A stretch of DNA of 64,000 nt, taken from the NCBI GenBank assembly GCA_003345545.1, contig PRDH01000015.1, positions 11,972 to 75,971 on the forward strand, in the 5' to 3' direction. Source of the stretch: Candidatus Thorarchaeota archaeon. Lineage in GTDB: Archaea > Asgardarchaeota > Thorarchaeia > Thorarchaeales > Thorarchaeaceae. Position numbers and translations under genes: made by a program. The notes below the pieces were generated by a model, which was not told the origin of the DNA, made no database searches, and saw only the letters and a program-made list of their open reading frames with translations. Below, one piece after another: positions 42,396-60,385 of the stretch (the first letter of the stretch is position 1; the number at the start of each line of letters is the position of its first letter).

Positions 42396-42551
42396 TCTCT
42401 AGCACCATCCATCTTATTTGTTATGCTACGGCAAAGAATCTCTGTCAGTAGAAGGAAATATGAGGAGCTAATGTTATGCTGAATGACCAGACTTCAACTG
42501 AACTTGACTACGATGACTCGTATCAAGTATCAATATAGAGAGGAGAATAAC

Positions 42552-44303: not shown

Positions 44304-44312
44304 ACTGGACTA

Positions 44313-44345
44313 GCGGGAGATCCTTCTCCCGCATTCTTCTTTTTT
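44313..44345 (+). terminator. Probable intrinsic terminator
   Basis: GCGGGAGA-TCCT-TCTCCCGC followed by ATTCTTCTTTTTT. Confidence 0.7.
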
Positions 44346-44443
44346 GATTCCTCAAGACATATGAGGGACTGTAGCAATATCCTAGTGGTAGGTAGTGATT
44401 AGACATCACAGCGATTCGCTACCGAGAGAGGAGATGAAGTGAG

Positions 44444-46195
44444 TTGGATGATGTATACTGGCGGTCAGGCGTTGCATGGCCAAAACGTGCTAGAAAGACC
44501 CTGGACTATCCAAAGGAACCCCTATTCGCCATGTTGGATAGGGCGGCTGAGAAGAGCGGAAACTCACCCTACACTGTATTCATGGGAAAATCACAGACAT
44601 ATAGCGAAGTGAGAGAACACGCAGACAGGATAGCCAATTTCCTCACCAGCAAGGGAATCAAGGGAGGAGACAAGGTCGCCATCTTTCTCCCTAATGTGCC
44701 CCACTTCCCTGCCGTGTTCTTTGGTGCACTCAGGGCAGGGGCAAAGGTGGTGACATGTAATCCATTATACAAGGCCGGCGAGCTGAATTACCAGCTGAAG
44801 GACACTGGTGCACGCATAGTGTTTGCATTGGATCATCCAACCTTCACACCAATATGCTATGAGGCTATCAAGGGCACTGATGTCCATACCGTGGTTGTAT
44901 GTAGCGTAAAGCCATTCCTGTCCAAAGTGAAGGCAGTGCTGGGAGGACTTCTCGGGAAGATACCAAAGAGCCCATACTACGAAAAAGACAAGACCGTCTT
45001 CTATGAACAGATTCTATCCACATATGAGCCCAAGGCGCCTCAAGTCACCATCGACCCAATGGACACAGCAGTTCTGATCTACACTGGGGGAACAACAGGA
45101 AACCCGAAGGGTGCTGAACTGACCCACCATAATATGACATCAAATATACTGCAGATAGCAGAGTGGGTCTATTTGGAGGAGGAGGATGCAGAGAGATCGG
45201 GCGGCGTCAGGTATGGAGAAGAGGTCTTTGTCGGGGCAATACCCTGGTATCACAGCTATGGCCTCACGCTGACAATGCTTATGGCCACATGGCTCGGAGG
45301 AAGACTGGTATGCATTCCTGATCCTAGATCTGGAAAGCCGCCTCTGTCCGATCTGCTGAGCGAGCTGTCAAAAACCAAGGGAACTGTCTTGAACTGTGTG
45401 CCCGCACTCTATGCCGGTATCGCAAATCATCCCAATGTCGGAAAATACGATTTGTCGTCGGTCACGATCTGCAGTTCAGGAGCTGCACCACTGCCACCAG
45501 AAGTTGCCAAGGCTTTCGAAGCAGTGACAGGTACACTTCTCTTTGAGGGGTATGGACTCACTGAAACTTCACCAGTGACCCACATTAATCCAACGAACAG
45601 CAGATATCGCAAGTTCGGCTCGATAGGCCTCCCAATCTCAGACACAATCTGCAAGATAGTTGACATGGAAACAGGGACGCGAGAGATGCCAATTGGTGAG
45701 GTTGGCGAGATCGCAGTCCACGGCCCGCAAGTCTTCAAGGGATACTGGAAGAAGCCCGATGAAACTGCGAATGTGATACGGACATTTGGCGGGAAGCGTT
45801 TCTTCCTGACAGGCGATATTGGTAGAATGGACGAGAATGGATACACCTTCATCAGCGATAGAAAGAAACAGATGATCAATGTCGGTGGTATGAAGGCATA
45901 CCCACGGGAAATCGAGGACATACTGTTCACCCATCCGAAGGTACAGATGGTAGCAGTTATAGGAATCCCCCGTGAAGAGGATCGCAGCAATGAGTTCGTC
46001 AAAGCGTACATTGTATTGAAAGATGGTGAGAGAGCAACACCTGAGGAGTTCATTGAGTGGGCGAGAGATAAGATGGCAGGTTATAAGCGTCCTAGAGAGG
46101 TTGAGATTGTAGCCAGTCTGCCTATGAGTAATGTTGGGAAGGTGCTGAGAAGAGAACTGCGCGATGCCGAGCTCAAGAAGAGAGGTTACACATAA
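44444..46195 (+). CDS. fadD: Long-chain fatty acid--CoA ligase (tandem paralog)
   Basis: Same adenylation motifs, collinear with 42552-44303. Confidence 0.9.
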   Translation: MDDVYWRSGVAWPKRARKTLDYPKEPLFAMLDRAAEKSGNSPYTVFMGKSQTYSEVREHADRIANFLTSKGIKGGDKVAIFLPNVPHFPAVFFGALRAGAKVVTCNPLYKAGELNYQLKDTGARIVFALDHPTFTPICYEAIKGTDVHTVVVCSVKPFLSKVKAVLGGLLGKIPKSPYYEKDKTVFYEQILSTYEPKAPQVTIDPMDTAVLIYTGGTTGNPKGAELTHHNMTSNILQIAEWVYLEEEDAERSGGVRYGEEVFVGAIPWYHSYGLTLTMLMATWLGGRLVCIPDPRSGKPPLSDLLSELSKTKGTVLNCVPALYAGIANHPNVGKYDLSSVTICSSGAAPLPPEVAKAFEAVTGTLLFEGYGLTETSPVTHINPTNSRYRKFGSIGLPISDTICKIVDMETGTREMPIGEVGEIAVHGPQVFKGYWKKPDETANVIRTFGGKRFFLTGDIGRMDENGYTFISDRKKQMINVGGMKAYPREIEDILFTHPKVQMVAVIGIPREEDRSNEFVKAYIVLKDGERATPEEFIEWARDKMAGYKRPREVEIVASLPMSNVGKVLRRELRDAELKKRGYT

Positions 46196-46327
46196 GTCAA
46201 CTTCAATCACAATAAGAAACATAGGTACAGCCTGTGCTGGGTCAGATTGGCTGGCGTTCGTACATTTCGTTTATTAGTGAGTTGTGACTAAGAATGTGAA
46301 CTATCACTCTAATCGATTAGAGGAGAG

Positions 46328-46981
46328 GTGAACGATATGGCTGGGTCGTGGAAGAGAATTGGTGCCTATTTGGGAATACTTGGTGGAATCATTTTCATCA
46401 TTACAACGTTCATAGCAATGCTGACATATCCGGGAGGATACTCATTCTTAGAGAACTACTTCAGTGAGCTTGGGTTGACAGTAATAAATAGTCAACCATC
46501 AATGCTGAACTATGTTCTGTTCAATATCGCATGTACAAGTGCTGCAGTCTGCCTAGTGCCGTTTGTATTCGCGATGCGCACAGTATTCACAGAAACTGGG
46601 GTGCTGAAGGGCTTGAGCTGGGTAGGCACCATTCTGGTGATTGCTGCTGCTCCAAACCTATCAGCCCTTGCGTTGTTTGCTGCAAATCTCTTTGGGTATG
46701 AGCATTTTCTGACGACGATGCTCTTCTTCCTACTCATAACCTTGGGAATTCTCATCTACTCAATTGCCATACTTCTCAACAAGAACTACGGGAACCTCTA
46801 TGCTCTGATTGGGTTCGTAGTCGTAGTGATCTGTTTCCTTCACGTCGGAGCTTTCTTCAGCTCAGCATTTGACATGTTTGGAACAGCTCTATGGCAGAAA
46901 CTATCAGTCTACGCGCTGATTCTGTGGTCGGCATTTCAGGGATACAGACTCCTGAAGGTAATTGATGGAAAGGCTGAATAA
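46328..46981 (+). CDS. DUF998-like membrane protein
   Basis: YPGGYSF..NYFSELG motif and about 5 TM. Confidence 0.65.
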   Translation: MNDMAGSWKRIGAYLGILGGIIFIITTFIAMLTYPGGYSFLENYFSELGLTVINSQPSMLNYVLFNIACTSAAVCLVPFVFAMRTVFTETGVLKGLSWVGTILVIAAAPNLSALALFAANLFGYEHFLTTMLFFLLITLGILIYSIAILLNKNYGNLYALIGFVVVVICFLHVGAFFSSAFDMFGTALWQKLSVYALILWSAFQGYRLLKVIDGKAE

Positions 46982-47041
46982 CTCCATGGAGATACAAAGG
47001 GACCAGATCTTGGGTAGCCACCGCGAGGGTAAAACGGAGGC

Positions 47042-47569
47042 TCAGCCAGACTTTCCAGAACCCGACTTCTTGTGGCTCTTACCCAACTCAATGTAGAGCT
47101 GTGCACCGGTCATGAAACTCTCGCGAAGCGCTTCAGAGACCTCCTTCACAACTTTTCCGGGAATGCCCATGACAAGACTTCCATCCGGAATGACCGAATT
47201 ATTGGTCACGACAGAACCAGCTCCGATGACACAGTCATTGCCAACCTCGGCACCATCAAGAACAATAGAACCCATCCCTACGACTGCACGGTCTCCAATC
47301 TTGCATGCGTGTATCACACAGTTATGACCAGCTGTCACATAATCACCAATGATAGTGGGATGCATGAATGTGGTGTGTACTGTGGCATTGTCCTGAATCG
47401 ACGTGCCTTTTCCAACCCGTATGTAGTTCATGTCAGCTCGAAGCACAGCAAACTCCCAAATGCTTGAATCAGCACCGACCTCAATGTCACCAATCAGAGA
47501 GGCTCTGGGAGATATGTACGCTTCAGGGTCAACCCTTGGTTTCTTACCATTGAACTCGTAGAGACCCAT
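47042..47569 (-). CDS. Gamma-carbonic anhydrase family (YrdA/PaaY/CaiE-like) hexapeptide-repeat protein
   Basis: LRADMN.I.VG..TSIQDN.TVH and GHNCVIHAC. Start taken at MGLYEF. Confidence 0.9.
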   Translation of the reverse strand: MGLYEFNGKKPRVDPEAYISPRASLIGDIEVGADSSIWEFAVLRADMNYIRVGKGTSIQDNATVHTTFMHPTIIGDYVTAGHNCVIHACKIGDRAVVGMGSIVLDGAEVGNDCVIGAGSVVTNNSVIPDGSLVMGIPGKVVKEVSEALRESFMTGAQLYIELGKSHKKSGSGKSG

Positions 47570-47685
47570 AGTATTCCACCTAAGACGGCAACTGGCGCTC
47601 AGTGCCTTTAAGAGTGTTGTCATGGAAATGGCGCCAGAACACATTTTACATCCTGTTGTGTCTACAATTGATGGGAGGCATAACA

Positions 47686-49404
47686 GTGATTCTATTGGAT
47701 CCCAATAACCTCACTCGCAAATACTCGGATGCTGAATCGAAGAATATAATGAAGAAGACCGTCCAGTTCTTTGAGAACAAGGGAAAAGTCGCCCTCAAGA
47801 ATGATGACCATGAGAGAGTCTGGTACCAAGACTTTCTAGACTTCGTGAAGAAGAATGAGATTTTCTACAAATTACTCACGCCTAGTAAGTATGGTGAGAA
47901 GGGATGTAGATGGGACACATGGCGGAACATGGAGTTCAATGAGATACTGGCATTCTATGGTCTTCACTATTGGTACACCTGGCAGGTCTCAATTCTCGGT
48001 CTTGGGCCGATTTGGATGAGCAAGAATGAAAAGGCGAAGAAGAAGGCAGCGAAATACCTCAAGCAGGGGGAAGTCTTTGCATTTGGCTTGAGCGAGAAGA
48101 ATCATGGTGCAGACCTCTACTCATCTGAGATGAGTCTCAAGGTACTAGGAGACGGCAAATACATTGCTAATGGCTCCAAGTACTATATCGGGAATGGAAA
48201 CGTCGCGCGAATGGTCTCGGTCTTCGGAAAGACAGATGTTCCCTCAGACCCTGAGAATGCCAACTACGGTAACTATGTCTTCTTTGCCGCAGACTCTCAG
48301 CATCCAAACTACGAGTGTGTCAGAAATCTGGTGAATGTGCAGTCATACGTTGCTGAGTACAAACTCAACGACTATCCTATTTCAGAGGCAGATATTCTAT
48401 CCAAGGCGAGAGAGGCTTGGGACTGCACACTGAACACTGTCAATGTAGGCAAGTTCAATCTCGGATGGGGATCGATTGGTATCTGTACACATGCTCTCTA
48501 CGAGGCCATCAATCATGCATCCAACAGATACCTCTACGGAAAATATGTTACCGAGTTCTCGCATATTCGACAGTTCTTCACTGATGCATATGCCCGATTA
48601 GTCGCCATGAAACTCTTTGCCCTCAGAGCTGGGGACTACATGAGGACTGCATCTCTAGAAGACAGACGCTATATCCTCTACAACTCTCTCGTGAAGATGA
48701 AGGTCACGAGTGAAGGCGAAAAGGTGATTGACCTCTTGTGGGACATCATTGCGGCACGTGGCTTTGAAGGGGAAACCTACTTCTCAATGGCAGCAAGAGA
48801 TATTCGTGCGCTGCCAAAGCTCGAGGGAACAGTTCATGTCAACATGGCACAGATCATCAAGTTCATGCCAGCGTACTTCTTCATGCCTCAGGAATACCCG
48901 GTTGTGGGTACAATATCTGAGCCAAAGGATGATGAGTTTCTCTTCAATCAAGGTATCACAAAAGGCCTGAGCGGTATCAGATTCCATGACTATCGAGCTG
49001 TATACGACACGGTAGACCTGCCCAATGTGAACATCTTCAAGAAACAGGTTGAGGTGTTCAATGAGTTCATGACTGAAGCAACACCTGATGAGAAACAGGG
49101 CGAGGACCTTGATTTCATACTGAATGCAGGAGAGCTGTTTTCCTTAGTGGTCTATGGGCAACTCATAATTGAGAATGCCAAGATCTACAAGATATCGGAC
49201 TACTTGCTCGATCAGATTTTTGATCTCATGGTTCGTGACTTCTCAAGGTATGCCCTCCAGATGTATTCGAAACAGAGCACTACAGAGAAACAGCAGGAGA
49301 TACTGCTGAGGATGATTATGAAGCCCCATGTAGACAGGGAGAGGTATGAGGCAATTATCAAGGAAGTCTATTCGTTGAATGGAAGATATGAGATGCGCAA
49401 GTAG
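47686..49404 (+). CDS. Acyl-CoA dehydrogenase
   Basis: AFGLSEKNHGAD, ANGSKYYIGN, KLEGTVHVN. GTG start after GGAGG. Confidence 0.9.
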   Translation: MILLDPNNLTRKYSDAESKNIMKKTVQFFENKGKVALKNDDHERVWYQDFLDFVKKNEIFYKLLTPSKYGEKGCRWDTWRNMEFNEILAFYGLHYWYTWQVSILGLGPIWMSKNEKAKKKAAKYLKQGEVFAFGLSEKNHGADLYSSEMSLKVLGDGKYIANGSKYYIGNGNVARMVSVFGKTDVPSDPENANYGNYVFFAADSQHPNYECVRNLVNVQSYVAEYKLNDYPISEADILSKAREAWDCTLNTVNVGKFNLGWGSIGICTHALYEAINHASNRYLYGKYVTEFSHIRQFFTDAYARLVAMKLFALRAGDYMRTASLEDRRYILYNSLVKMKVTSEGEKVIDLLWDIIAARGFEGETYFSMAARDIRALPKLEGTVHVNMAQIIKFMPAYFFMPQEYPVVGTISEPKDDEFLFNQGITKGLSGIRFHDYRAVYDTVDLPNVNIFKKQVEVFNEFMTEATPDEKQGEDLDFILNAGELFSLVVYGQLIIENAKIYKISDYLLDQIFDLMVRDFSRYALQMYSKQSTTEKQQEILLRMIMKPHVDRERYEAIIKEVYSLNGRYEMRK

Positions 49405-49480
49405 ATCATGACCGTCCGACTCTTGTTTCTTCGATAATAGCAAATAGCCAGGCTTATCACCAACTGGATGTTGAATCAAG

Positions 49481-49960
49481 ATGCCGGTTATGCCGTTCCA
49501 TATCCACTTGCATTTCTATTCTCCAGGGCAGACGAGCATCTATCCCTGCCTGGATTAATCGTTGGCTCAGTCATACCTGACATTGAAGTCCCATTTATGG
49601 GGATGTTCTTTGCCAGTCTTCCAGACCATCTCTTCTTGCACGGCCTTCTTGATGCTTTGACGATTGGAACTCTGCTTGCGGCTGCCATTACACGTTTTCT
49701 GTACACACCGATTGTGTCGCATGTCTTCGGGGTTGAGAGAGATGAACTGAACTAGGTATGTCGAGTAGGTCCTTGGATGGCAGTATCTTGTTTCCTTGGA
49801 GTGACAACACATTTGGTGCTTGACTTTCCGATGCACTGGTATAATTCTATTCTCTGGCATTGGGCAAATCCGTATCACACTATTGGTTCGCTATTTCTCT
49901 TGTTTATGCCGATCTTTGATATCTGGGCTGCTTATTTGAATGCCAGTACAATCATGCATG
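49481..49960 (+). pseudogene. DUF4184-like membrane protein pseudogene
   Basis: MPV.PFH/YPLAF start broken by a 1-nt frameshift near 49500. GLIVGSVIPDIE and THLVLD..H motifs. In-frame TAG at 49753-49755; 3' end truncated. Confidence 0.7.
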
Positions 49961-49975
49961 TTGGGCCATGCCCCA

Positions 49976-50172
49976 GATATAGAAGCGCAGTTGAAGACAT
50001 GGTATGAATACCGTGGATGGAACAGAAAGACAGCAAGACCACCCAAAAACAAGCTCGAGAATCTTGGTCTTGGCGACCTTACTTGAGTACCAACTTCCTT
50101 GGTTTTGGAAGACTCTCCACGATATCTTTCAGACAATTATGGAGAACCTCAACATCTATGATCTTCAGTTTA
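49976..50172. repeat. Left copy of a ~200-bp diverged direct repeat (aor 3' end on +, pepD 3' end on -)
   Basis: Aligns gap-free with 58543-58739 (offset 8567). + strand reads PDIEAQLKTWYEYRGWNRKTARPPKNKLENLGLGDLT*; - strand reads LKIIDVEVLHNCLKDIVESLPKPRKLVLK*. Confidence 0.85.
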
Positions 50173-50257
50173 TCATTAGTCGAAGGGGTGGAGATGTTGA
50201 GATGCAACGTGCATTTGAGGGAGCAAATAAGTCTGGTATATATTGGAAAACAGTGAG

Positions 50258-50965
50258 CTAGCTCTTTGAGAGAAAACGAGTCCCCAAGAAGAGTTCCTTT
50301 AGGATTACTCTGGTGAATTGTGACCCCATTTTGAGAGTTGGTGATTGCTTTGCGGGGCCCACTCTTTCCAATTCTCTAGTGGGAATCTCAACCACTCTCT
50401 TCTTTAATTTGAGACATCTAATTGTCTGTTGAATTTCGATATTGTAACCCTGCGCATCTTGCTTTAGATGTTTCAAAAGGCTTCGCTTTATCAAACGATA
50501 GCCATTAATTGCATCAGTGACACTGCCACCCCAAAACAGCTTGGTAAGTCTGGAAAAGAACATATTCCCAACTCTTCTGATTCTATAGGGGTCATCAGAA
50601 TCGTCACTAACTGAGCCCTCGGTAAATCTTGAGGCAATTACCAGATCAGCATGATGAGCTATCATTGTGTCAATCAAGTGTGGCAGGTCACTTGGATCTT
50701 CATTTCCATCTGGACTGAAAAAGAGGAGCGCATCAGCGTCTGTTTGTTCGATTGCTTCAATCACTGCTTTCCCTCTACCTATCTCTTTCTGTTGTACTAC
50801 ACGAATACCTAGTGATTCGAGGAACTCGACACTTCCATCTGTTGAATGTCCATCCATACACAGAAGATCATCAAAGATACTGGCATCAATTCTAGGAATA
50901 ACTTCTTTCATAGGCTCCAACTCGTTTTTTACTAGCAAAACCAAAGCTACAGAAAGACGTTTCAT
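50258..50965 (-). CDS. GT2 glycosyltransferase (Dol-P/Und-P-sugar synthase-like)
   Basis: KNE, DGHSTDGS, GRGKA, FFSPDGNEDP.D, ASRF, DAINGYR. Confidence 0.9.
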   Translation of the reverse strand: MKRLSVALVLLVKNELEPMKEVIPRIDASIFDDLLCMDGHSTDGSVEFLESLGIRVVQQKEIGRGKAVIEAIEQTDADALLFFSPDGNEDPSDLPHLIDTMIAHHADLVIASRFTEGSVSDDSDDPYRIRRVGNMFFSRLTKLFWGGSVTDAINGYRLIKRSLLKHLKQDAQGYNIEIQQTIRCLKLKKRVVEIPTRELERVGPAKQSPTLKMGSQFTRVILKELFLGTRFLSKS

Positions 50966-51134
50966 TACTATCGCAGCTCCTTCATTCCTCTATCTACTAC
51001 TTCTAAGTGAGATGAGCTGATGAAAAAAATGTTCCCGTTGAGATTCTCTTTTTTTTTAACTGATGGATTATTATAGTATTCTCTGTTCTTACCAGGATGT
51101 CACCCCAAAAGAACTGTTGTTTGGAGATGCTTCG

Positions 51135-51851
51135 ATGGTGTTCACAAAAAGAGGTCATCCTCCCACAAAAGCGTTAATCATTTTGACTTTCAATGAAATT
51201 CATGGGTCTAGAGCTCTTGCTGACAAGATACCCTATACTTTGTTTGACAATTCTATTGTAATTGATGGAGGAAGTACTGATGGAACACGGGAGTTTTGGG
51301 AAAGCAGAGGAATACGAGTGGCTCAACGTCGCTCTCCCGGGCGTGGGAGTGCTTTCATAATCGCTATTGAAGAGTGTAAGGAAGACATACTCCTCTTTTT
51401 CAGTCCAGATGGAAATGAAGATCCAAACGATATACCACGACTTTTGGATGCGGTCTTGACATCAGATCTTGTCATAGCTACTCGTTTTGGTAAGGGTGGG
51501 ACAAGTGATGATGCAGAAGTTTTGAGAACTTTCGGAAATCTTCTTTTTACAGCTATTTGCAGACTGCTTTTCAGAGCCAAGGTCACCGATGCTGTAAACG
51601 GATTCCGCACCATCTGGAGAAAGAGAATGATGAATCTCAATCTACCCCCTTCGCGATTTGAGATTGAAATGCAAATCACCATACGCGCTTCAAAACTCAA
51701 TATGAGAATAACCGAAATCTCAACTCATGAATTCAAGAGGATTGGAGGAGTATCAAAAGCGAAATCATTTGATGTAGGTTTGTCTTACTTGAAACTCTTC
51801 CTAGATGAACTTCTTCTGGGGAGGAGATTCATTAATAAAGCGCACACATAA
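51135..51851 (+). CDS. GT2 glycosyltransferase (Dol-P/Und-P-sugar synthase-like), paralog
   Basis: FNE, DGGSTDGT, GRGSA, FFSPDGNEDP.D, ATRF, DAVNGFR, FEIEMQ. Confidence 0.9.
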   Translation: MVFTKRGHPPTKALIILTFNEIHGSRALADKIPYTLFDNSIVIDGGSTDGTREFWESRGIRVAQRRSPGRGSAFIIAIEECKEDILLFFSPDGNEDPNDIPRLLDAVLTSDLVIATRFGKGGTSDDAEVLRTFGNLLFTAICRLLFRAKVTDAVNGFRTIWRKRMMNLNLPPSRFEIEMQITIRASKLNMRITEISTHEFKRIGGVSKAKSFDVGLSYLKLFLDELLLGRRFINKAHT

Positions 51852-51884
51852 GCGCTCTGCAATGCTGTACGGTGAGTATCGCTT

Positions 51885-52259
51885 ATGGAGTCTGCGGCTA
51901 TAACTCTCATCTTGATATTAATGGGAATCGCCTTTGTTCACGTCATAGGAGAGATCCTATTCAAGAAGGGAGGGATGACTTCATTTGCGGAATCAGAGAG
52001 AGGTCTTGATACGAAATCCTGGAGACATTTTCTCCTTTCTCCGATTGTGATTCTATCATTATTCATCACGCTGGCCGTAAAGGGACTCTATGGAATTGTA
52101 TTGGCATCAAACCCGCTCTATTTGGCAGGGGGTACCTACTTGGCTTCAGTCGCGGTAATCTCAGTACTTGCTGGTCGTATCATTTTCAATGAGGACCTGA
52201 AAAAAACCCAGCTTGTTGGATTTGCGCTAGTTGCGATTGGAATAATCCTTTTGGTGTGA
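51885..52259 (+). CDS. SMR/EamA-like 4-TM protein (ArnE/F-type flippase candidate)
   Basis: 124 aa, 4 TM, GEILFKKG and IFNE....QLVG.ALV.IGI. Confidence 0.7.
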   Translation: MESAAITLILILMGIAFVHVIGEILFKKGGMTSFAESERGLDTKSWRHFLLSPIVILSLFITLAVKGLYGIVLASNPLYLAGGTYLASVAVISVLAGRIIFNEDLKKTQLVGFALVAIGIILLV

Positions 52260-52705
52260 AAGAGATGGACAGAATGAAACCTAATGCACGAGCAACCTTC
52301 TGGTTTCCTCTTCTTATCGCTACTGCAATCTATGGCGTTGGTGATGTCCTCTTAAAGATGGGAAACATGGATATTGGTAGCACTTTTGAACGGCTCCTGG
52401 AGGGTGAGTTTTGGCTGGCCTTCATTCTTAGTGCTCCGATTATTGCTGCCTTTGGTCTATCCTTGGTAGCCAAGTTGATTATGGGAGTGGTTCTGTCAAA
52501 GAATCCACTCGGAATATCTGAAGGATTCTTCTTGGCCTTCTCAGTGATGGCAGTCTTCGTTTTGGGCATATTCTTATTTGCAGAGTCAGTTGATTACTTG
52601 AATATTGCTGGACTAATCGCAATTGTGGTGGGTATAATTCTGGTCTACTCCCCCGTGTCAGTGAAAGATGAAGACTCAGTTCTAGAGGATAAAAAAAATG
52701 AGTAA
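52256..52705 (+). CDS. SMR/EamA-like 4-TM protein (partner subunit)
   Basis: 4 [10 protein letters not shown] and LFAESV...NIAG..AIVVGI; overlaps both neighbours. Confidence 0.7.
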
Positions 52706-53753
52706 GACTGCCTTTATCACAGGAATCACTGGACAAGATGGATCATATCTTGCTGAGTTTCTCTTGTCACGTGGATATGAAGTCCATGGAGTCATCCGTC
52801 GTACAAGCACTTTCAATACACAGAGGATAACTCACATCTTTCAGGACCCTCATGAAGCGGACGTACATTTGAAGTTACACTATGGTGATGTGACCGATGC
52901 CTCCTCATTGAGCCTCTTGATTCGGGAGACTGAACCTGATGAGGTCTACAATCTGGCAGCACAGAGTCATGTTCGTGTATCATTTGATCTTCCTCAATAC
53001 ACTGCAATGGTGAATGGTGTTGGGACGATTTCTCTGTTAGAAGCAATCAGACAAAGCAAACAGGATGTTCGCTATTATCAAGCATCATCATCTGAGATGT
53101 TCGGGGCAAGTCCACCTCCCCAGAATGAGCAGACTATCTTCCATCCGTTGAGTCCGTATGCTGCTGCAAAAGTCTACGCACACTGGGTCACAGTGAATTA
53201 TAGAGAAGCCTATGGAATGTTCAATTGCTCTGGAATTCTCTTCAATCACGAATCTCCCCGCCGTGGAAGGACATTCGTCACGAGAAAAGTGACTCATGGG
53301 ATTGCAGAAATCTTAGCTAAGAAGATCGATGTCCTATACTTTGGAAATCTGGATGCAAAACGCGATTGGGGCTATGCTCCGGAGTATACTGAGCTCATGT
53401 GGAAAATGCTACAAGCTGACAAGCCAGATGATTATGTAATCGGAACTGGTGAATCTCACAGCGTCAGAGACCTAATCATCGAAGCGTTCTCCTATGCCGG
53501 TCTTGAATGGGAGAAATACATCAAACACGATGAACGCTACATGCGACCCTCGGATGTCAACTATCTTCTATCTGATCCCTCAAAGGCACGGAAAAAGCTA
53601 GGCTGGAATCCAAAGGTTAGATTCAAGGAACTGGTGAGGATAATGGTTGACTATGACATGTTGAGTGTCGGACTTGAGCCACCAGGTGAAGGCATCGAGT
53701 TCCTCAAGAAGAACGGTCTTCTGTGGAGTAATAGTGAAGAAACACCAGGGTAG
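52698..53753 (+). CDS. gmd: GDP-mannose 4,6-dehydratase
   Basis: [60 protein letters not shown]. Confidence 0.96.
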
Positions 53754-53755
53754 AG

Positions 53756-54694
53756 CTATGGCATGACCTCTGGATTTGCAAGCAACCATTCGTAAGTCAG
53801 TCTTAGGCCTGTCCGGATGTCCGTTATCCTATTCCAGGTCAAGCGACCGAACCTAGAACTGTCCATCAGTTTTCTTGGCATACCATCAGGTTTTGATTTG
53901 TCAAGTTTGATTGAGCCCTTAAAACCAACAGTTTCTTTCACCAATTCCGCAAGATCAAGGATTGACATATCACTACTTGTCCCCACGTTGATGAACTGGT
54001 CGTCATCATACTCGTTCATCAGATAGACTGCTGCATCTGCTAGGTCCTCAACGTACATGAACTCCCTTCGAGCGCTTCCTGTTCCCCAGAGGGTGACGCT
54101 CTTCTTCCCCTGAACCTTCGCTTCATGGAACCTCCTTATGAGGGCCGCAATTACATGAGACTTCTCAATGGAGAAGTCATCTCCAGGGCCGTAGAGGTTT
54201 GGCGGAACGATTGTGATTGCATTGAATCCGTACTGTCTTCTGTAGAATTCGCACATCTTCAACCCTGCAATCTTGGCGACTGCATACGCCTCATTGGTCG
54301 GTTCCATTGGACCAGTCAGTATGTACTCTTCTTTCATCGGTTGTTTTGACTCTCTGGGATAGATACATGAACTTCCAAGGAACTCGAGCTTCTTCACACT
54401 AGATAGATATGCGCTATGAATGACGTTTGTCTGAATCATCAGATTGTCATAGATGAAGGTCGCAGGTGAAGAAATGTTAGCTTGGATTCCTCCGACTTTT
54501 GCTGCAGCAAGGAATACATAATCTGGCCTGATCTCTTCAAACCACGCTCTTACAGCATGTTGATCCGTCAGGTCTAATTGCTCCCTTGTAGCAGTCAGGA
54601 CATCTACGTAGCCAGAGGCTTCCAAGTTGCGGAGAATTGCTCCTCCAACCATGCCTCTATGTCCCGCGACATATATCCTGTCTGTCTTTTCCAT
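53756..54694 (-). CDS. fcl: GDP-L-fucose synthase family epimerase/reductase (Fcl/WcaG; probably ColC in this context)
   Basis: AGHRGMVGGA, AAAKVGGI.AN, GSSCIYP, EPTNEAYAVAK, PNLYGP.D, SHVI.ALI, KPDGMPRK. Confidence 0.92.
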   Translation of the reverse strand: MEKTDRIYVAGHRGMVGGAILRNLEASGYVDVLTATREQLDLTDQHAVRAWFEEIRPDYVFLAAAKVGGIQANISSPATFIYDNLMIQTNVIHSAYLSSVKKLEFLGSSCIYPRESKQPMKEEYILTGPMEPTNEAYAVAKIAGLKMCEFYRRQYGFNAITIVPPNLYGPGDDFSIEKSHVIAALIRRFHEAKVQGKKSVTLWGTGSARREFMYVEDLADAAVYLMNEYDDDQFINVGTSSDMSILDLAELVKETVGFKGSIKLDKSKPDGMPRKLMDSSRFGRLTWNRITDIRTGLRLTYEWLLANPEVMP

Positions 54695-54714
54695 ATCACT
54701 TCCCTCAAATCGGT

Positions 54715-55992
54715 CTATTTCTCTCCCAGTGCAGAGATGATTCTCTCTGAGAGGTCCTTACATTCCTCATCGGTCATCTCTGCGTGCACTCCAATGAGCA
54801 TGCCAAGACGATCCACATGATTAGCTACATTCAACGGCACGGGAGCCATTGCGGGATAAGTCTGCCTTGCAGGTTGGACTTCCATATTTCCTCCCATCAC
54901 TACCCTCGTTTCAACTCCCCGCTTTTCCATTCCTGCAATGACCTTACTTCTGCTGTCCCAATCCCCTTCTTTGAGGACCATTGGAAAGCCAAACCAGCTG
55001 TGCTTTCCGCCCTCCTGCTCATGTTGTACATAGATATCGGTCTTTGCATCTGCAAGAGCATCAAGCAAGATAGATGCATGTCTTCTCCGTAGCCTTACGA
55101 AGTCGTCCAGTTTCTTGATCTGGTGAATTCCAAATGCCCCTTGTATCTCAGTTGGACGCAGATTGTACCCCCGATTGATGAAAAGGAACCGAGGGTCTCG
55201 ATTCGCATATTTGCTTTCGACCTTCTTTCTGTTCACTAGATCCCGGGTCCAACCATGGGCTCGAAGAGCTCTAGCAAGTTCTGCATACTCATCATTATCC
55301 GTAACAACCATTCCACCTTCGATGGTAGAGATATGGTGGGAGAAGAAGAAGCTATATGTCCCTAGGTCTCTAAATGACCCTACTTTCTTGCCATTGAATT
55401 CTGCCCCATGAGCTTCACAGCAGTCTTCAATAAGATATAGTCCATGCTCATCACAAATCTCATTCAGCTCATTCATATCACATGGATTTCCGATTAGGTG
55501 GACTGCCATGATTGCCCTAACATCAGGGGTTATGGCTGCTCTAACCGAATCAGGGTCCAAGTTCAGGGTGGCAAGCTTCGAATCTGCAAATACAGGCAAT
55601 GCACCCACATCAGCAATTGGATACACACTCGTTGACCACGTCAACGCGGGAACTATCACCTTGTCATTTGGCATTAGTGGATTCTCAATACTTGAATTAG
55701 ATAGAATTGCCATAGCAAGAAGATTCGCTGAAGAACCTGAGTTGACCATAATCGCATTACGAACACCTATGTATTCTGCAAAAGATGCTTCAAAATTACG
55801 TACCTTTTCTCCCATTGTCACTTTAGTCGAAAGAAGCGATTCGAGTGCTTCCTTGATTTCCTCAAAATCAAATGTTGGTTTGACAAGTGGAAACTCATAT
55901 GATGATGCATTTTTCCTCTTTTGTTCCTCGAATATCCTTTCTAGTTGATCAAGAATTTCTTTCGGAATCATCAATTCTTCATTCACGGGCAA
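54715..55992 (-). CDS. colD: DegT/DnrJ family PLP enzyme, GDP-4-keto-6-deoxymannose 3-dehydratase type
   Basis: MVNSGSSANLLA, EDCCE, SFFFSHHISTIEGG (His in place of the Schiff-base Lys), LRAHGWTR, GYNLRP.E. Confidence 0.8.
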   Translation of the reverse strand: MPVNEELMIPKEILDQLERIFEEQKRKNASSYEFPLVKPTFDFEEIKEALESLLSTKVTMGEKVRNFEASFAEYIGVRNAIMVNSGSSANLLAMAILSNSSIENPLMPNDKVIVPALTWSTSVYPIADVGALPVFADSKLATLNLDPDSVRAAITPDVRAIMAVHLIGNPCDMNELNEICDEHGLYLIEDCCEAHGAEFNGKKVGSFRDLGTYSFFFSHHISTIEGGMVVTDNDEYAELARALRAHGWTRDLVNRKKVESKYANRDPRFLFINRGYNLRPTEIQGAFGIHQIKKLDDFVRLRRRHASILLDALADAKTDIYVQHEQEGGKHSWFGFPMVLKEGDWDSRSKVIAGMEKRGVETRVVMGGNMEVQPARQTYPAMAPVPLNVANHVDRLGMLIGVHAEMTDEECKDLSERIISALGEK

Positions 55993-56392
55993 TCACTACT
56001 CGGTTGTTTTCAAGAACTGAAACCAACATGACAAGCATACATTTGGTTGGAGACAATCTATCTTAAGAATAGTGCTTTTAATCTGATTCAAGCTGAGATA
56101 GACACAGCCCTAGCGCCGGCTTAGAAGCTTCGTATCTGCTGCCGACCCGTCAGTTGAACTAATTTCGTATCTGCCTTTCAAATTCATCTCTTTTCATACG
56201 GACTTGAGAATACTGACTGCTTCGTCATAGCGTTTTGATGCCTTACAATCAGTTGCCCGTTTGATGGCATTACTTAGTGCGTCCACTCACAGTACACCAT
56301 GACTTATCTGATGAAGTAAGCTAATCGAGTATTGGTTCGGGTCAGCTGCAACCTTTTTATACCGCTAATTTTGTCGAGTTTGAGAACGGTCT

Positions 56393-58465
56393 ATGGATGC
56401 ATCATTCTTGGAAATCGGTCACATATCGTACCAAACCTTACTGAGAGCCTCTACATACGTACTTCTCATTGCATGTTATCTCCTGTTCCCGATTTGGATG
56501 CTAATAGATGGAATAATACTGCAGATCGCATTTGTTTTTACAATCGCATTCATCATACCTGAGATTCTGGGATACCTCTTAACTGACATTCTAGGCGAAC
56601 CAAGCAAGAAGATCGACATTGTGTCTCTGTTGAAGAGAAATGGAATCACAGTAGGGTACTTTGCAGGCACATCATTCGTATATGCCTTGCTGCTACTTCC
56701 TCTTTTGCTCGCCCCGATAAAACCAATTGATGATGAACCAGTCCATCTTGGAAGAATTGCATTTCTCGAGAGGATACTCACACTTGGTTCTCGCTTGGAC
56801 TCGACATTAGTCGGGATTGCCATTTCCCTCGCTGTTATTGTTCTGTCAATAGTAATTCTGATCGCAGCTGGCATAATAGGAGAGAATCGGATTCAGTCGT
56901 TCTTCCGCTCCTTGTTTGAGAAGACTATGCTGTCGCGCATTGCCCACATAATAATCGGAGGCGCATTCTGCGCACTAGTTGTTCTATCATCATCCTTTGT
57001 AGTACATGAGTGGGATATTGCAAGATTCGGTCCGCTACAGCCAGTATCCTATGTGGCGCCACTCCTTCTCTTTGGTTACACAGATGTCACTCTATTGATT
57101 CTAAGGTTGTTTGATGTGTTGCTTATGGTACTGTCCGCAGTGTTCATCATGAAAATCACATCAGACCTACTGGAAGCCTTTTCCGGCCAGAGGGGGCAGA
57201 CAAACAGAATTCACAAGATACTGGGGATGGTAGCAGGGTGGGTTTTCCTCCTCTACACGCCAACGATAGTATTCTCTGCTCAAATCATGCTGACCGCGGG
57301 AGTGGCGATGTTCTTCACATTGAATTGCTTCTTATTCATCCGATTCTTCAAATCTTCAGGAAACAGAATCGGCAACATCTATCTTCTATCCCTGTTTGTA
57401 TCACTCGCAATTGGAAGCTTATGGAAGAACGTGCTTCTTGTTCAAGCAGCCACTTTTGTAGTCATTCTCTTGCTATGGGCGATATCGAGACCCAATCGGG
57501 CAGAGAGTCTGATACTCTGGTTCAAATCCTGTCTAATATACTTGGCAATATTCGGCCCATGGTTTATGATCATACAATTGGGAGGAATGATGAGCCGGGA
57601 GTACATCCCAAATCCAACATATCTTCTGCCACCCAGTCTATTTGACTATCTGTTTAGACTTGATCTTCAAATGGGAGTCTTTTGGGGATTGCTCGGATAT
57701 GCAAGTATCTGTTCGGTCTTTCTTCTTGCTATTTGGAAACGCTCATGGATTCTGTTTACTATTACTCTGACATACGCTTCTTGGTATGTCTTCTTCACAC
57801 TTGATTCAGGTTGGCCTCATATAGTCGATCGCTTCTTTGTACCAGCTTTGTCTTTACTTGCAATCTCATCGGCTTTCCTTATCGGAGCATTTCTGCAGGA
57901 AACGTTGAATATTATCAGGGATTCAAGAGCGGCTGGAAAGACAGGAATATCAACACCGTCAATTCAGAGTGTCAAGAAGATTGCAGTGCTGAGCGTGACT
58001 ATTATTCTGCTTACTTCACTCGCTGCGGGAGTAGGAGAACGGGCGATTTCTATTCCGCAGCAAATTCACTATTCTGTAAATAACGAGTATTTAGCATATG
58101 ATAAGGCCGCAGAATATGTTCACAGTATCATCAATGGGAACTCTAGTCTTCTCTACTCAAGATTCGGGCAAAGTGGATTCAACTACTACATGAGGAATTA
58201 TGGGGACTATTACTATACCATGAGTGGCTTCGGAAATCCTTGGGTGCCCGAAGAGGGTAATGAATCTGCAGGCTATTTCATTGAGTATCTGAGAAACAAC
58301 AGTTATTCCGTCCTCGCAATGCCGGATGCAGAGTTCTGTCAGCTTGATTTGGCAAATGCAACAGCTGTCATTGACGAACTGATAGAAAGATATTCGTTCT
58401 TTGGGATAACCGAATATCGGGCTTTCCAATATGGAGAGACCTCATTCCATGTATGGAGTTTCTAG
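56393..58465 (+). CDS. Polytopic membrane protein, GT-C/ArnT-like glycosyltransferase candidate
   Basis: More than 12 TM, an early loop PIDDEPVH (DE motif), late DRFFVP motif, C-terminal soluble domain. Confidence 0.6.
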   Translation: MDASFLEIGHISYQTLLRASTYVLLIACYLLFPIWMLIDGIILQIAFVFTIAFIIPEILGYLLTDILGEPSKKIDIVSLLKRNGITVGYFAGTSFVYALLLLPLLLAPIKPIDDEPVHLGRIAFLERILTLGSRLDSTLVGIAISLAVIVLSIVILIAAGIIGENRIQSFFRSLFEKTMLSRIAHIIIGGAFCALVVLSSSFVVHEWDIARFGPLQPVSYVAPLLLFGYTDVTLLILRLFDVLLMVLSAVFIMKITSDLLEAFSGQRGQTNRIHKILGMVAGWVFLLYTPTIVFSAQIMLTAGVAMFFTLNCFLFIRFFKSSGNRIGNIYLLSLFVSLAIGSLWKNVLLVQAATFVVILLLWAISRPNRAESLILWFKSCLIYLAIFGPWFMIIQLGGMMSREYIPNPTYLLPPSLFDYLFRLDLQMGVFWGLLGYASICSVFLLAIWKRSWILFTITLTYASWYVFFTLDSGWPHIVDRFFVPALSLLAISSAFLIGAFLQETLNIIRDSRAAGKTGISTPSIQSVKKIAVLSVTIILLTSLAAGVGERAISIPQQIHYSVNNEYLAYDKAAEYVHSIINGNSSLLYSRFGQSGFNYYMRNYGDYYYTMSGFGNPWVPEEGNESAGYFIEYLRNNSYSVLAMPDAEFCQLDLANATAVIDELIERYSFFGITEYRAFQYGETSFHVWSF

Positions 58466-58542
58466 TACATATAATAAAGAGAGGTCTTTGAACCGAAATG
58501 AAACCTATACATCTATCGTGATGGCTCGTCCTCCATTTCTCG

Positions 58543-58739
58543 GATAAAGAGGAGTAGTTGAAGACATGGTATGAATACCGAGGATAGGACAGAAAGACAG
58601 GAAGACCACCCATAAACAAGCTCGAGAAGCTTGGTCTTGGTAACCTTACCTGAGTATTAACTTCTTCATATTTGGTAGGTCCTCAATAATATCTCTCAGA
58701 ATATTATAGAGAATCTCAACATCGATTATCTTGAGCCTT
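58543..58739. repeat. Right copy of the diverged direct repeat (decayed aor 3' end / pepD 3' end)
   Basis: + strand reads DKEE*LKTWYEYRG*DRKTGRPPINKLEKLGLGNLT* (two stops). Matches 49976-50172. Confidence 0.85.
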
Positions 58740-58990
58740 TCATCAGGCATGTGAGGATTCTCCAGGCTTGGTCCAATTCATACCATTTGCATTCCAGGTA
58801 TCTATGATCCAATAATACCGCACTCGAAACCTGCATGAATGGCCTTGATTTTGACCTCTCTTCCAGTTATCTCCTCGAAATGTTCACGAAAGAAAGAAAC
58901 GGACTTTTCGGTTCAGGGTCCAACCGGGGTATGCAGGTTTCTTAGTGGCTTGCCGTCCACTCGATTCGGCAAGATTAGAAATGCCGACCG
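58646..58990 (-). pseudogene. pepD: PepD (aminoacyl-histidine dipeptidase, M20C) C-terminal pseudogene fragment
   Basis: Manual translation: ISNLAESSGRQATKKPAYPGW (frameshift) FFREHFEEITGREVKIKAIHAGFECGIIGS*IPGMQMV*IGPSLENPHMPDERLKI. YPGW, IHAGxECG and GP....HxPDE are PepD motifs. Confidence 0.8.
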
Positions 58991-59422
58991 TGAGGGTTTT
59001 GATCTGGCTATATTGACTGCAGCCTATCTTGAATATACTGTGAAGAACGGTCGTTCAGGCGAGATCGAGATTGAGATTCAGAGTGGACCTAGGAATGACC
59101 CAAGTCCTGTGAAAATTGAAACGCCAATGATTGGGCTATACTTTGACTGTGATATCTTGGTACAACCAGCAAAGATAATCGGTGACTTGGAGCTGTAGTT
59201 TATCACAGATAATCTGATGCTTCCTTCTGGGCTAATCTAATCCCTGCACTCATTGCATAGTGTCTAGAGATGCTAAGACAAATGAACCCAAATGGTAGAG
59301 CTATGATAGTCATCTGGCATAGTATTATCCGAATGGTTCGTTCCAAAGGAAATCTCTCGTATCGGCAGTGGATTAAAGATACTACAGTGGTGAAACACAC
59401 AGTATAAGAAACGCCTAGAATT

Positions 59423-60385
59423 TCATCTAATGGGGAGGAACCACTCTTCTAACGAAATGTAAGACTCAGTATCCAGGACATCCTGACTCTCATACAATCG
59501 TCTGAGAAACTGGTTGAAGGTCATGACGCTACTTGTTCTGACCATGGCAAGAAGACTATAATCTTCGCTTGTACGATAGAGGTCCCATACCTCGCGCATA
59601 CCAGTGATCTTCTGCGCGATATCACTTGCAGTTCCAGGACTCACTTTTATTCTGACAAAGAACTTCACAGGCAGGTCAACTAGGGAAAAATCCGTGTTGA
59701 TAGAGTAGCCAATTATTGCGCGTTTTATCAAGAGCTTCTCAATACATTTCGAAACTGCAGGTTGACTAAGGGGGGGATTCATCCGAGCACCAATCTCTTC
59801 CTGAGTCAGCGGTAAAGGGCTTTCATGAGTTGGTTCATGACAGTACATTATCCTAAGGAGTGCGAGCTCTTTCTGAGAGAGGTAAGACTCTGAAGACTCA
59901 TTGGGGAGAATTCTAAACCGGTTCTTCATGTATGTAGTGAGTACTTGGACAAGATTGTATTTCCCAGCCCCCGAAGTAGCCACCACGGTGTCGACTCGGT
60001 CCAGTAAGTCCTCAAATGCACCTTGACTGTCAAATCGGAAGAATCCGAGAAGTGAGAAGTCACCGGCAATCCCATCGAGTGACTCAAGTTCTTCCATCTC
60101 CATGAGCTTCTCGCTCACATCCTGTTCCCGAGGGTTGCTCTTCATGAATAGGATTGTGACCCTTGCACCCTGAACTTGAGCAGGATCAATAATCGTCGTG
60201 TAGCGCCGTATGACACCGCCTCTCACAAGCCCTCTGATAGTGCGCGATACCCAATTCCGGCTCTTGTCAACTAACTGACCCAGAACTGCTGGAGTGTCCC
60301 GTGAATTCCGCGCGAGAGCCTCGAGGAGTCGGCGTTCTGCATCCGATAGCATGATTTGCATGGTAGATGCGCTCTTCCTGTGCAT
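59423..60385 (-). CDS. Tandem Lrp/AsnC-family transcriptional regulator
   Basis: Two HTH plus RAM units (GVIRRYTTIID...GDFSLL; AIIGYSIN...EDYSLL). Confidence 0.85.
   Translation of the reverse strand: MHRKSASTMQIMLSDAERRLLEALARNSRDTPAVLGQLVDKSRNWVSRTIRGLVRGGVIRRYTTIIDPAQVQGARVTILFMKSNPREQDVSEKLMEMEELESLDGIAGDFSLLGFFRFDSQGAFEDLLDRVDTVVATSGAGKYNLVQVLTTYMKNRFRILPNESSESYLSQKELALLRIMYCHEPTHESPLPLTQEEIGARMNPPLSQPAVSKCIEKLLIKRAIIGYSINTDFSLVDLPVKFFVRIKVSPGTASDIAQKITGMREVWDLYRTSEDYSLLAMVRTSSVMTFNQFLRRLYESQDVLDTESYISLEEWFLPIR

Follow-up and report, generated by a model that had tools for sequence, protein, structure and literature searches.

A repeat-bounded island in a Thorarchaeota genome appears to couple a GDP-colitose-type sugar pathway with a lipid-carrier machinery for surface glycosylation

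We analysed a 64,000-nucleotide stretch of a Candidatus Thorarchaeota archaeon genome (GenBank assembly GCA_003345545.1, contig PRDH01000015.1, positions 11,972 to 75,971 of the forward strand; hereafter ‘the window’, position 1 being its first letter) and concentrated on the eight genes at 50258-58465, which a preliminary description, made from the sequence alone, had presented as a self-contained island for GDP-colitose synthesis and lipid-linked transfer of this sugar to the cell surface. Our observations point to a strain-variable, three-component extracytoplasmic glycosylation system that is probably fused to its own sugar-nucleotide pathway, a reading to which we assign a probability of roughly 0.6; its three-component part (i.e. 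a family 2 glycosyltransferase or GT2, a pair of small multidrug resistance (SMR)-like proteins and a GT-C-fold membrane transferase) is well supported in silico. All eight open reading frames (ORFs) were recovered exactly at the coordinates given before and are set out below together with the repeats that enclose them (aa, amino acids; TM, transmembrane).

49966..50179, no strand: left direct repeat, remnant of a convergent aor-3'/pepD-3' gene junction
50258..50965, minus strand: GT2a, 235-aa GT-A glycosyltransferase (PF00535), candidate dolichyl/polyprenyl-phosphate sugar synthase, extra paralog
51063..51851, plus strand: GT2b, 262-aa candidate dolichyl/polyprenyl-phosphate sugar synthase (PF00535), conserved member
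51885..52259, plus strand: smrA, 124-aa half-transporter of the SMR/DMT (drug/metabolite transporter) type with 4 TM helices, candidate flippase subunit (weak EamA match, member of family profile A2)
52256..52705, plus strand: smrB, 149-aa SMR-fold protein with 4 TM helices, candidate flippase subunit (AlphaFold2 model, profile)
52698..53753, plus strand: gmd, GDP-mannose 4,6-dehydratase (TIGR01472, PF16363)
53756..54694, minus strand: Fcl-family epimerase/4-reductase, predicted to take the ColC role (NF047922)
54715..55992, minus strand: predicted ColD-type, pyridoxamine 5'-phosphate (PMP)-dependent sugar 3-dehydratase (PF01041, 321 bits)
56393..58465, plus strand: putative divergent GT-C-fold membrane glycosyltransferase (ArnT/PMT_2-like), 690 aa (predicted-structure matches)
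58533..58746, no strand: right direct repeat, copy of the aor-3'/pepD-3' junction, more decayed

The island measures about 8.4 kb, and its gene cassette is bounded exactly by two direct repeats of 214 nt, 80% identical to each other, that translate, on one strand, into the C-terminus of an aldehyde:ferredoxin oxidoreductase (AOR; ...KTWYEYRGWNRK...LGLGDLT* in the left copy) and, on the opposite strand, into the C-terminus of a PepD-like protein. The AOR-tail frame of the right repeat (58533-58746) is broken by an internal stop, and other genomes of the genus show the aor/pepD junction intact, both of its convergent genes being of full length. The G+C content of the island (0.439) is essentially the lowest of the window (minimum 0.438 and median 0.479 over all 8.35-kb segments of the 64 kb). 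Within the genus, the GT-C gene is present in two of the 28 genomes, namely the source genome and one other (G362), which carries an identical cassette in the same flanks. On the strength of the flanking repeats, the low G+C content and this 2/28 distribution, we regard the locus as a discrete island of sporadic distribution. A second genome of the genus (locus L001) carries the gene set in colinear order and, since parts of it also recur in other Asgard families and it is repeat-bounded and low in G+C, we consider it to be more than a chance assemblage. Neither an integrase nor phage genes were found in the island, the whole window gave no Rfam match, and no contig joining across the island (i.e. 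the empty-site form) was recovered among the contigs of four wetland metagenome runs, in which cover was patchy; a look-up of RNA runs found none that contains the island.

The internal organisation of the cassette links its two halves. GT2b, smrA, smrB and gmd are co-directional, with overlaps of 4 nt between smrA and smrB and of 8 nt between smrB and gmd; in view of these stop/start codon overlaps the four genes read as a single operon, and this shared operon structure ties the sugar pathway to the carrier machinery. The colD and Fcl-like genes lie 20 nt apart on the same strand (the Fcl-like gene downstream) and both converge on the gmd operon, the gene for the 690-aa membrane protein (56393-58465) is divergent from colD, and GT2a and GT2b are divergently transcribed.

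The first enzyme of the predicted pathway is clear-cut: Gmd scores 490.6 bits with TIGR01472, above the curated equivalog cut-off of 415 (PF16363, 445 bits), and is 51% identical to E. coli Gmd. The DegT-family gene at 54715-55992, whose translation holds both ...SFFFSHHISTIEGG... and LRAHGWTR, has the four E. coli ColD entries as its best PDB matches (2gms, E 1.7e-83; 284 bits for ColD vs 204 for E1 and 178 for the perosamine synthase PerA; phmmer). S218-H219-H220 of this protein aligns with the S-H-H of ColD 2gms, H219 corresponding to ColD His188, and we take H219 for the catalytic position because the aligned residue (the first His of S-H-H) is the one changed in the ColD mutant entries 3b8x and 2r0t (H188N, H188K). 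Across 55 aligned relatives, the aminotransferases without exception carry Lys here, where the window enzyme has Ser-His. An RfbH/E1-type reference shows A-H-H and the cysteines C230, C252, C254 and C262, at whose columns M, a gap, T and K stand in the window protein; a four-Cys [2Fe-2S] cluster is the hallmark of the iron-sulfur-dependent E1/SpnQ enzymes and is not found in ColD (PMC8987622). Two candidate assignments were accordingly rejected, that of an E1-type CDP-sugar dehydratase on the missing Cys cluster and the lower scores (204 vs 284 bits), and that of an aminotransferase on the presence of His, not Lys, at the catalytic position. In a quick maximum-likelihood tree with limited sampling (references E. 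coli O55 ColD and Streptomyces RfbH, both taken from annotated records, with neither a perosamine synthase nor a Yersinia E1 sequence among them), the enzyme falls in an S-H-H clade with E. coli O55 ColD, Streptomyces RfbH is sister to it and the Lys-type proteins stand outside (93/99 in the Shimodaira-Hasegawa-like approximate likelihood-ratio test, SH-aLRT). Taken together, the best PDB matches, the S-H-H at His188, the lack of the E1 Cys cluster, the placement in the ColD clade and the flanking bona fide Gmd agree with the preliminary assignment of this pyridoxal 5'-phosphate (PLP)-type enzyme to ColD, and in silico it resembles neither an amino-sugar-forming nor a CDP-sugar-acting member of the fold. 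Its predicted substrate, the GDP-linked product of Gmd, is read from the adjacent Gmd and Fcl-type genes, because the enzyme is 38% identical to E. coli ColD and the S-H-H clade is huge and for the most part uncharacterised, with at least 7891 relatives at E <= 1e-40; the 120 best database relatives bear generic or automatic names only.

S-H-H ColD-like genes (46-49% identical) were also observed in the Asgard families f8 and f13 (L047, L050, L051, L052 and L056), where the adjacent 4,6-dehydratase is only 32-36% identical to the window Gmd and, in L047, scores 197 bits with the LegB model vs 160 with the gmd one; in these loci, to judge by such neighbours, the ColD-type clade may act on other nucleoside-diphosphate sugars. 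A Bathyarchaeota metagenome-assembled genome (MAG; L003 10001-11207) holds a ColD-like gene with 53% identity that is split over two frames, by a frameshift or an assembly error. Clade size, the 38% identity and the LegB-like neighbours (197 bits) of some members could all be taken to mean that the island makes a product other than colitose, i.e. another 3,6-dideoxyhexose epimer or, if the enzyme transaminates, a 4-amino sugar, and the same may be said of Haladaptatus (see below), which has an unrelated short-chain dehydrogenase/reductase (SDR) instead of Fcl. We consider this very improbable, as the aminotransferases all have Lys where the window enzyme has Ser-His like ColD, and as the enzymes encoded with it are a true Gmd and a 3,5-epimerase/4-reductase of the Fcl type.

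Turning to the carrier machinery, the GT2 paralogs share 43% identity, and their best NCBIfam models are AglJ, the haloarchaeal dolichyl-phosphate hexose transferase and the mycobacterial PpgS (AglJ score of GT2a, 113 bits). The only PDB sequence match of GT2b is the Pyrococcus furiosus dolichol-phosphate mannose synthase (PfDPMS; 5mlz, E 1.7e-9), which it covers over the whole catalytic domain. Orthologs of GT2b (57-68% identity) adjoin colD and/or the SMR pair in the genomes G023, G041, G069, G076 and G082, and no ortholog of GT2a closer than 47% was found among 400 Asgard genomes. From these resemblances we regard both proteins as dolichyl-phosphate/polyprenyl-phosphate sugar-synthase-like, with synthase activity as their candidate function.

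SmrA and SmrB are paralogs (34% identical) from a rare family, represented 17 times among 1.8 billion clusters, and 9 of 16 of its members match EamA. The AlphaFold2 model of SmrB (predicted local distance difference test, pLDDT, 84.5) has Gdx-Clo as its top Foldseek match (target-normalised template-modelling score 0.86, root-mean-square deviation 1.8 A, probability 1.00), followed by EmrE. Furthermore, the profile of the small-protein family (A2) aligns with E. coli ArnE at an hhalign probability of 95.8% (E 7.7e-9, 107/111 residues), more weakly with ArnF (68%), and with PDB SMR chains at E about 1e-5 (6.5e-6). That the pair flips a lipid-linked sugar is suggested by its adjacency to a GT2 gene in seven Asgard genomes.

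The 690-aa protein gave no Pfam or NCBIfam match, even at E 10, and its nearest database relatives come from the Asgard groups Sifarchaeia, Promethearchaeota and Thorarchaeota, in line with an Asgard host. Three approaches support a GT-C fold for its AlphaFold2 model (pLDDT 63.7, predicted template-modelling score 0.64). Foldseek placed ArnT (5f15) at the top (E 4e-4), before AftA, DPY19 and STT3/AglB; the VIA-align wide search, which is independent of Foldseek, ranked ArnT first as well (Z 16.4 with 417 residues aligned; AglB 15.9, ALG12 15.8, Pmt 15.8), with ranks 1-19 all in the GT-C superfamily and unrelated helical proteins at Z <= 8.2; and the ESM Atlas, used as a lead, returned PMT_2 clusters at 0.98 and a structural template-modelling score of 0.61/0.72 to an ‘ArnT family’ cluster. 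In the model, two extra N-terminal helices precede the GT-C core, which begins near residue 80, and residues 567-690 form a separate C-terminal alpha/beta domain. A motif P-x-(D/G)-(E/A)-x-x-H-x-x-R follows the TM1-equivalent helix, in a poorly modelled loop, with (D/G)(E/A)xxHxxR at 114-121; H118 and R121 are invariant, and Asp or Glu is present in this motif in 8 of 8 aligned homologs, some of them only 21-22% identical. It resembles, by analogy, the acidic first-loop motif of GT-C enzymes. An RxGPxxP motif at 211-217 is likewise conserved in homologs of only 21-22% identity. The earlier proposals for the three carrier components (two GT2s resembling dolichyl-phosphate-sugar synthases, a gene pair of the four-TM SMR type and a GT-C-like membrane protein) are hence all in agreement with the family, profile and structure searches, and candidates for the lipid-phosphate sugar synthase, the flippase and the GT-C transferase, by which three-component systems are recognised (PMC11127046), lie together within 8.4 kb.

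The strongest support for a functional unit comes from comparative genomics. The search for the cassette in other archaea, proposed with the preliminary description, showed that its parts recur across Asgard genomes: GT2b-smrA-smrB-gmd-fcl-colD are colinear in G069; the Fcl-like gene, GT2b, colD and a GT-C homolog stand together in G023; in G074, smrA-smrB are grouped with a GT2 and a GT-C homolog, and colD is missing; and a GT2 gene adjoins an unambiguous smrA-smrB pair in G076 and one SMR-type match region in G047. A member of another Asgard family (G055:C7, ~461900-472300) combines GT2-smrA-smrB with gmd, an Fcl-like gene, a LegC-like aminotransferase of the Lys type and a GT-C-like protein, an assortment that looks like a GDP-amino-sugar route placed on the same chassis. 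Since the GT2, SMR and GT-C genes recur with differing partners (G074, G055), it is the chassis that recurs and the GDP-sugar pathway that changes.

Outside the Asgard archaea, the best match for colD in the plasmid database lies on a plasmid of Haladaptatus pallidirubidus (NZ_CP085304.1 222061-228980, locus L058), where an unannotated 576-aa protein with 11 TM helices, a GtrA-family protein and a GT2 stand head to head with gmd, an SDR unrelated to Fcl and a ColD-like gene (45% identical). By its gene content this cassette would follow the same logic with a different flippase family; the GT-C profile found nothing in the 576-aa protein (hhalign). As H. pallidirubidus is cultured, its cassette could serve as an experimental surrogate. 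A Bdellovibrionales MAG (L002 1078-6046) has colD-fcl-gmd-GT2 followed by an unannotated 378-aa protein (~7 TM helices, no Pfam match), which may be the transferase or the flippase of a bacterial version.

These same comparisons bear on a decidedly unlikely alternative, in which the GT2/SMR/GT-C trio carries a common sugar (mannose, glucose), the colitose-type GDP-sugar goes to soluble Leloir transferases encoded elsewhere and the two are mere neighbours in a glycan island. The trio is indeed found without colD in G074 and with a different, aminotransferase-containing pathway in G055, the GT2s have their best structural match in an enzyme for mannose, and in bacteria colitose is, as far as is known, added by cytoplasmic transferases. 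Against it stand the translational coupling of gmd to smrB within one operon, the lack of any other glycosyltransferase in the island to which the GDP-sugar could be handed, and the fact that a colD pathway and a lipid-carrier trio are again found together in Haladaptatus (with a different flippase family) and in the Bdellovibrionales MAG.

On the assumption that the carrier machinery and the sugar pathway do form one system, a sequence of events can be proposed in which the enzymatic activities, the cargo and the acceptor are predictions drawn from the families, folds, motifs, linkage and boundaries described here. Gmd would convert host GDP-mannose into GDP-4-keto-6-deoxymannose, the ColD-type enzyme (with PMP, and with His219 as acid/base) would remove the 3-hydroxyl, and the Fcl-family enzyme would epimerise and reduce the intermediate to a GDP-3,6-dideoxyhexose, most simply GDP-L-colitose. 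At the cytoplasmic face, a TM-less GT2 (GT2b being the conserved one) would then load the sugar on dolichyl or polyprenyl phosphate, a SmrA/SmrB heterodimer would flip the lipid-linked monosaccharide, and the GT-C protein would transfer the sugar to an acceptor outside the cell. Surface-protein N-glycans would be the obvious candidates for this acceptor, and plausible ones because the genome encodes AglB (an AglB/STT3 gene is present).

More tentatively, and at odds that we place a little short of even, the Asgard archaea may harbor exchangeable ‘serotype-conversion’ modules built on a chassis of TM-less GT2, SMR pair and unannotated GT-C protein, into which GDP-sugar pathways are plugged (a colitose-type one here, an amino-sugar one in G055) and which would pass from one lineage to another by recombination at a gene junction; a lipid-phosphate-linked 3,6-dideoxyhexose would then be a real donor, and the same idea would be realised with other flippases in haloarchaea and some bacteria.

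Several observations weigh against the reading of the island as one lipid-carrier system for a colitose-type sugar. Both GT2s fall far below every NCBIfam equivalog cut-off and are members of no named equivalog, at the position of the DXD metal-binding motif GT2b reads D-G-N against the DAD of PfDPMS (GT2a has an identical SPDGNED string), and neither of them has a TM segment (human DPM1 and mycobacterial PpgS are also devoid of one). The GT-C model is of only moderate quality, with a pLDDT below 50 in the loop of the putative catalytic D114/E115, and hhalign gave no sequence-level link of the GT-C profile to E. coli ArnT. In G069, no GT-C gene was found within the 19 kb inspected. Moreover, manB and manC are absent from the island, and no clear ManC (GDP-mannose pyrophosphorylase) was found in the 93%-complete genome, where the only candidates were two Arch_glmU-type nucleotidyltransferases; the island is therefore self-contained, as had been proposed, from GDP-mannose onward, the supply of GDP-mannose itself lying outside it.

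To these points is added the reductase, which is the weakest link of the pathway. The Fcl-like protein scores 464.6 bits with NF047922 (just below the cut-off of 500) and is 50% identical to E. coli Fcl vs 39% to E. coli O55 ColC (both references taken from annotated records), a proximity from which GDP-fucose may be a product, or even the main one. A tree of Asgard Fcl homologs unites it in one clade (SH-aLRT 99) with three further Asgard proteins, and the genes of all four are colD-adjacent; a separate 16-member clade holds E. coli Fcl together with Asgard members that are mostly encoded beside gmd and never beside an S-H-H colD, and E. coli ColC sits with a Paracoccus relative on a separate long branch. 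Neither identity nor tree thus makes the protein an ortholog of the characterised ColC lineage (E. coli O55 WbdJ/Yersinia ColC). Of the original proposal of an Fcl/WcaG-family reductase acting as ColC, the family, the place next to colD and the membership in a colD-linked clade hold, and descent from the E. coli ColC line (39%) does not; we infer an independently derived ColC analogue that is possibly also a GDP-fucose synthase.

If this single Fcl-type enzyme serves both branches, GT2a may load a second sugar such as fucose, as the preliminary description had also envisaged. The island would in that case be a two-sugar system, with GDP-L-fucose and GDP-L-colitose made by the same enzyme and one of them passed to each GT2, or else a fucose system with colitose as a side branch. 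The kinship with E. coli Fcl is consistent with it, and so are the status of the gene as the only Fcl-type one in the genome and the pattern in the GT2 paralogs, of which GT2b alone is conserved with colD elsewhere. The clade, on the other hand, comprises only colD-adjacent proteins and lies apart from the canonical gmd-linked Fcl of the same genus, and the cassettes of other genomes manage with one GT2, for which reasons we hold the two-sugar arrangement to be unlikely.

The surroundings of the island are of a different character. To its left (42483-49404), the genes point to fatty-acid/acyl-CoA metabolism (two AMP-binding ligases, a hexapeptide transferase and an acyl-CoA-dehydrogenase-like protein), and given this non-glycosylation neighbourhood the island is not part of a larger glycan locus. 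Just left of it, a 95-aa fragment matches the start of DUF4184 (49468-49755, plus strand) and, just right of it, stands a 119-aa ORF with no Pfam or NCBIfam match (58839-59198, plus strand); both may be debris of the insertion event. Just outside the right repeat lies a gene for a 320-aa regulator (59423-60385, minus strand), which matches Lrp/AsnC-type NCBIfam models of half its length (136-164 positions), three of them over two stretches.

The surface glycans of Asgard archaea, the closest prokaryotic relatives of eukaryotes, are almost uncharted, and an island that occurs in just 2 of the 28 genomes of its genus would suggest that cell surfaces vary between strains, a variation of relevance to recognition by viruses or partners. 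It moreover brings to light a GT-C family without a Pfam model and a very sparsely represented SMR-like one. Were modules for lipid-linked dideoxy sugars to prove real, they would amount to a widespread undescribed route for these sugars.

With respect to novelty, we found no paper linking colitose to a lipid-phosphate carrier, a GtrB or a GT-C enzyme, and none on a lipid-phosphate-linked 3,6-dideoxyhexose donor. A genome survey reported L-colitose as absent from TACK archaea and GDP-colitose pathways in 5.6% of 12,939 genomes (PMC7725333). In Haloferax volcanii, AglD, AglR and AglS place mannose on a separate dolichyl phosphate, bring it across the membrane and add it outside to an N-linked tetrasaccharide (PMC3871713). 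The preliminary remark that no archaeal description of such a system was known is thus upheld for colitose and for these protein families, and has to be given up for the three-step logic, for which AglD/AglR/AglS are the archaeal precedent. Unlike the island, the Haloferax system employs a Wzx-like AglR and an AglD that is a large membrane GT2, handles mannose, and has aglD apart from the agl cluster, with no compact island.

In its sugar pathway, the island recalls the Gmd-ColD-ColC route of E. coli O55/O111 and Yersinia pseudotuberculosis (PDB 2gms, PMC8987622), with which it shares Gmd, a His-type, iron-sulfur-free 3-dehydratase of the E. coli O55 ColD clade and an adjacent Fcl-family reductase. 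It differs from that route in the divergence of its ColD (38% identity), in a reductase outside the E. coli ColC lineage, in a cluster devoid of manB and manC, and in the predicted use of the sugar, which would go to a lipid-phosphate carrier in place of cytoplasmic Leloir transferases.

Among the transfer machineries, the ArnC/ArnE-ArnF/ArnT aminoarabinose system of E. coli and Salmonella is similar in that a GT2 loads a modified sugar on polyprenyl phosphate, adjacent SMR-like paralogs with 4 TM helices flip it and a GT-C enzyme passes it on outside; the cluster also contains the sugar-tailoring genes, and the likeness extends to the ArnE profile match and to ArnT as best structural match. 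It is unlike the island in that pairwise comparison (BLASTP) gave no significant match of the island proteins to ArnT, ArnE or ArnF, the sole match being that of GT2b to ArnC (E 2.5e-4), and in that the island GT2s are without the TM helices of ArnC, the donor would be a GDP-sugar vs a UDP-sugar, the lipid is presumably dolichyl phosphate and the acceptor cannot be lipid A. In bacteria, systems of three components combine a polyprenyl-phosphate sugar synthase, a flippase and a GT-C enzyme (PMC11127046), as in CsbB/GtcA/YfhO (PMC8035078). The GtrA/GtrB/Gtr* systems of O-antigen seroconversion likewise join a synthase, a small flippase and a GT-C protein in a module that is mobile, varies between strains and modifies a surface glycan already in place (the Haladaptatus relative itself has a GtrA-family protein), whereas the island has an SMR pair as predicted flippase, a 3,6-dideoxyhexose pathway from GDP-mannose inside the module, an archaeal host and no phage or integrase genes. 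By its parts, then, the island would have its closest analogue in ArnC/ArnE-ArnF/ArnT and, by its life-style, in GtrABC-type seroconversion together with the bacterial three-component systems.

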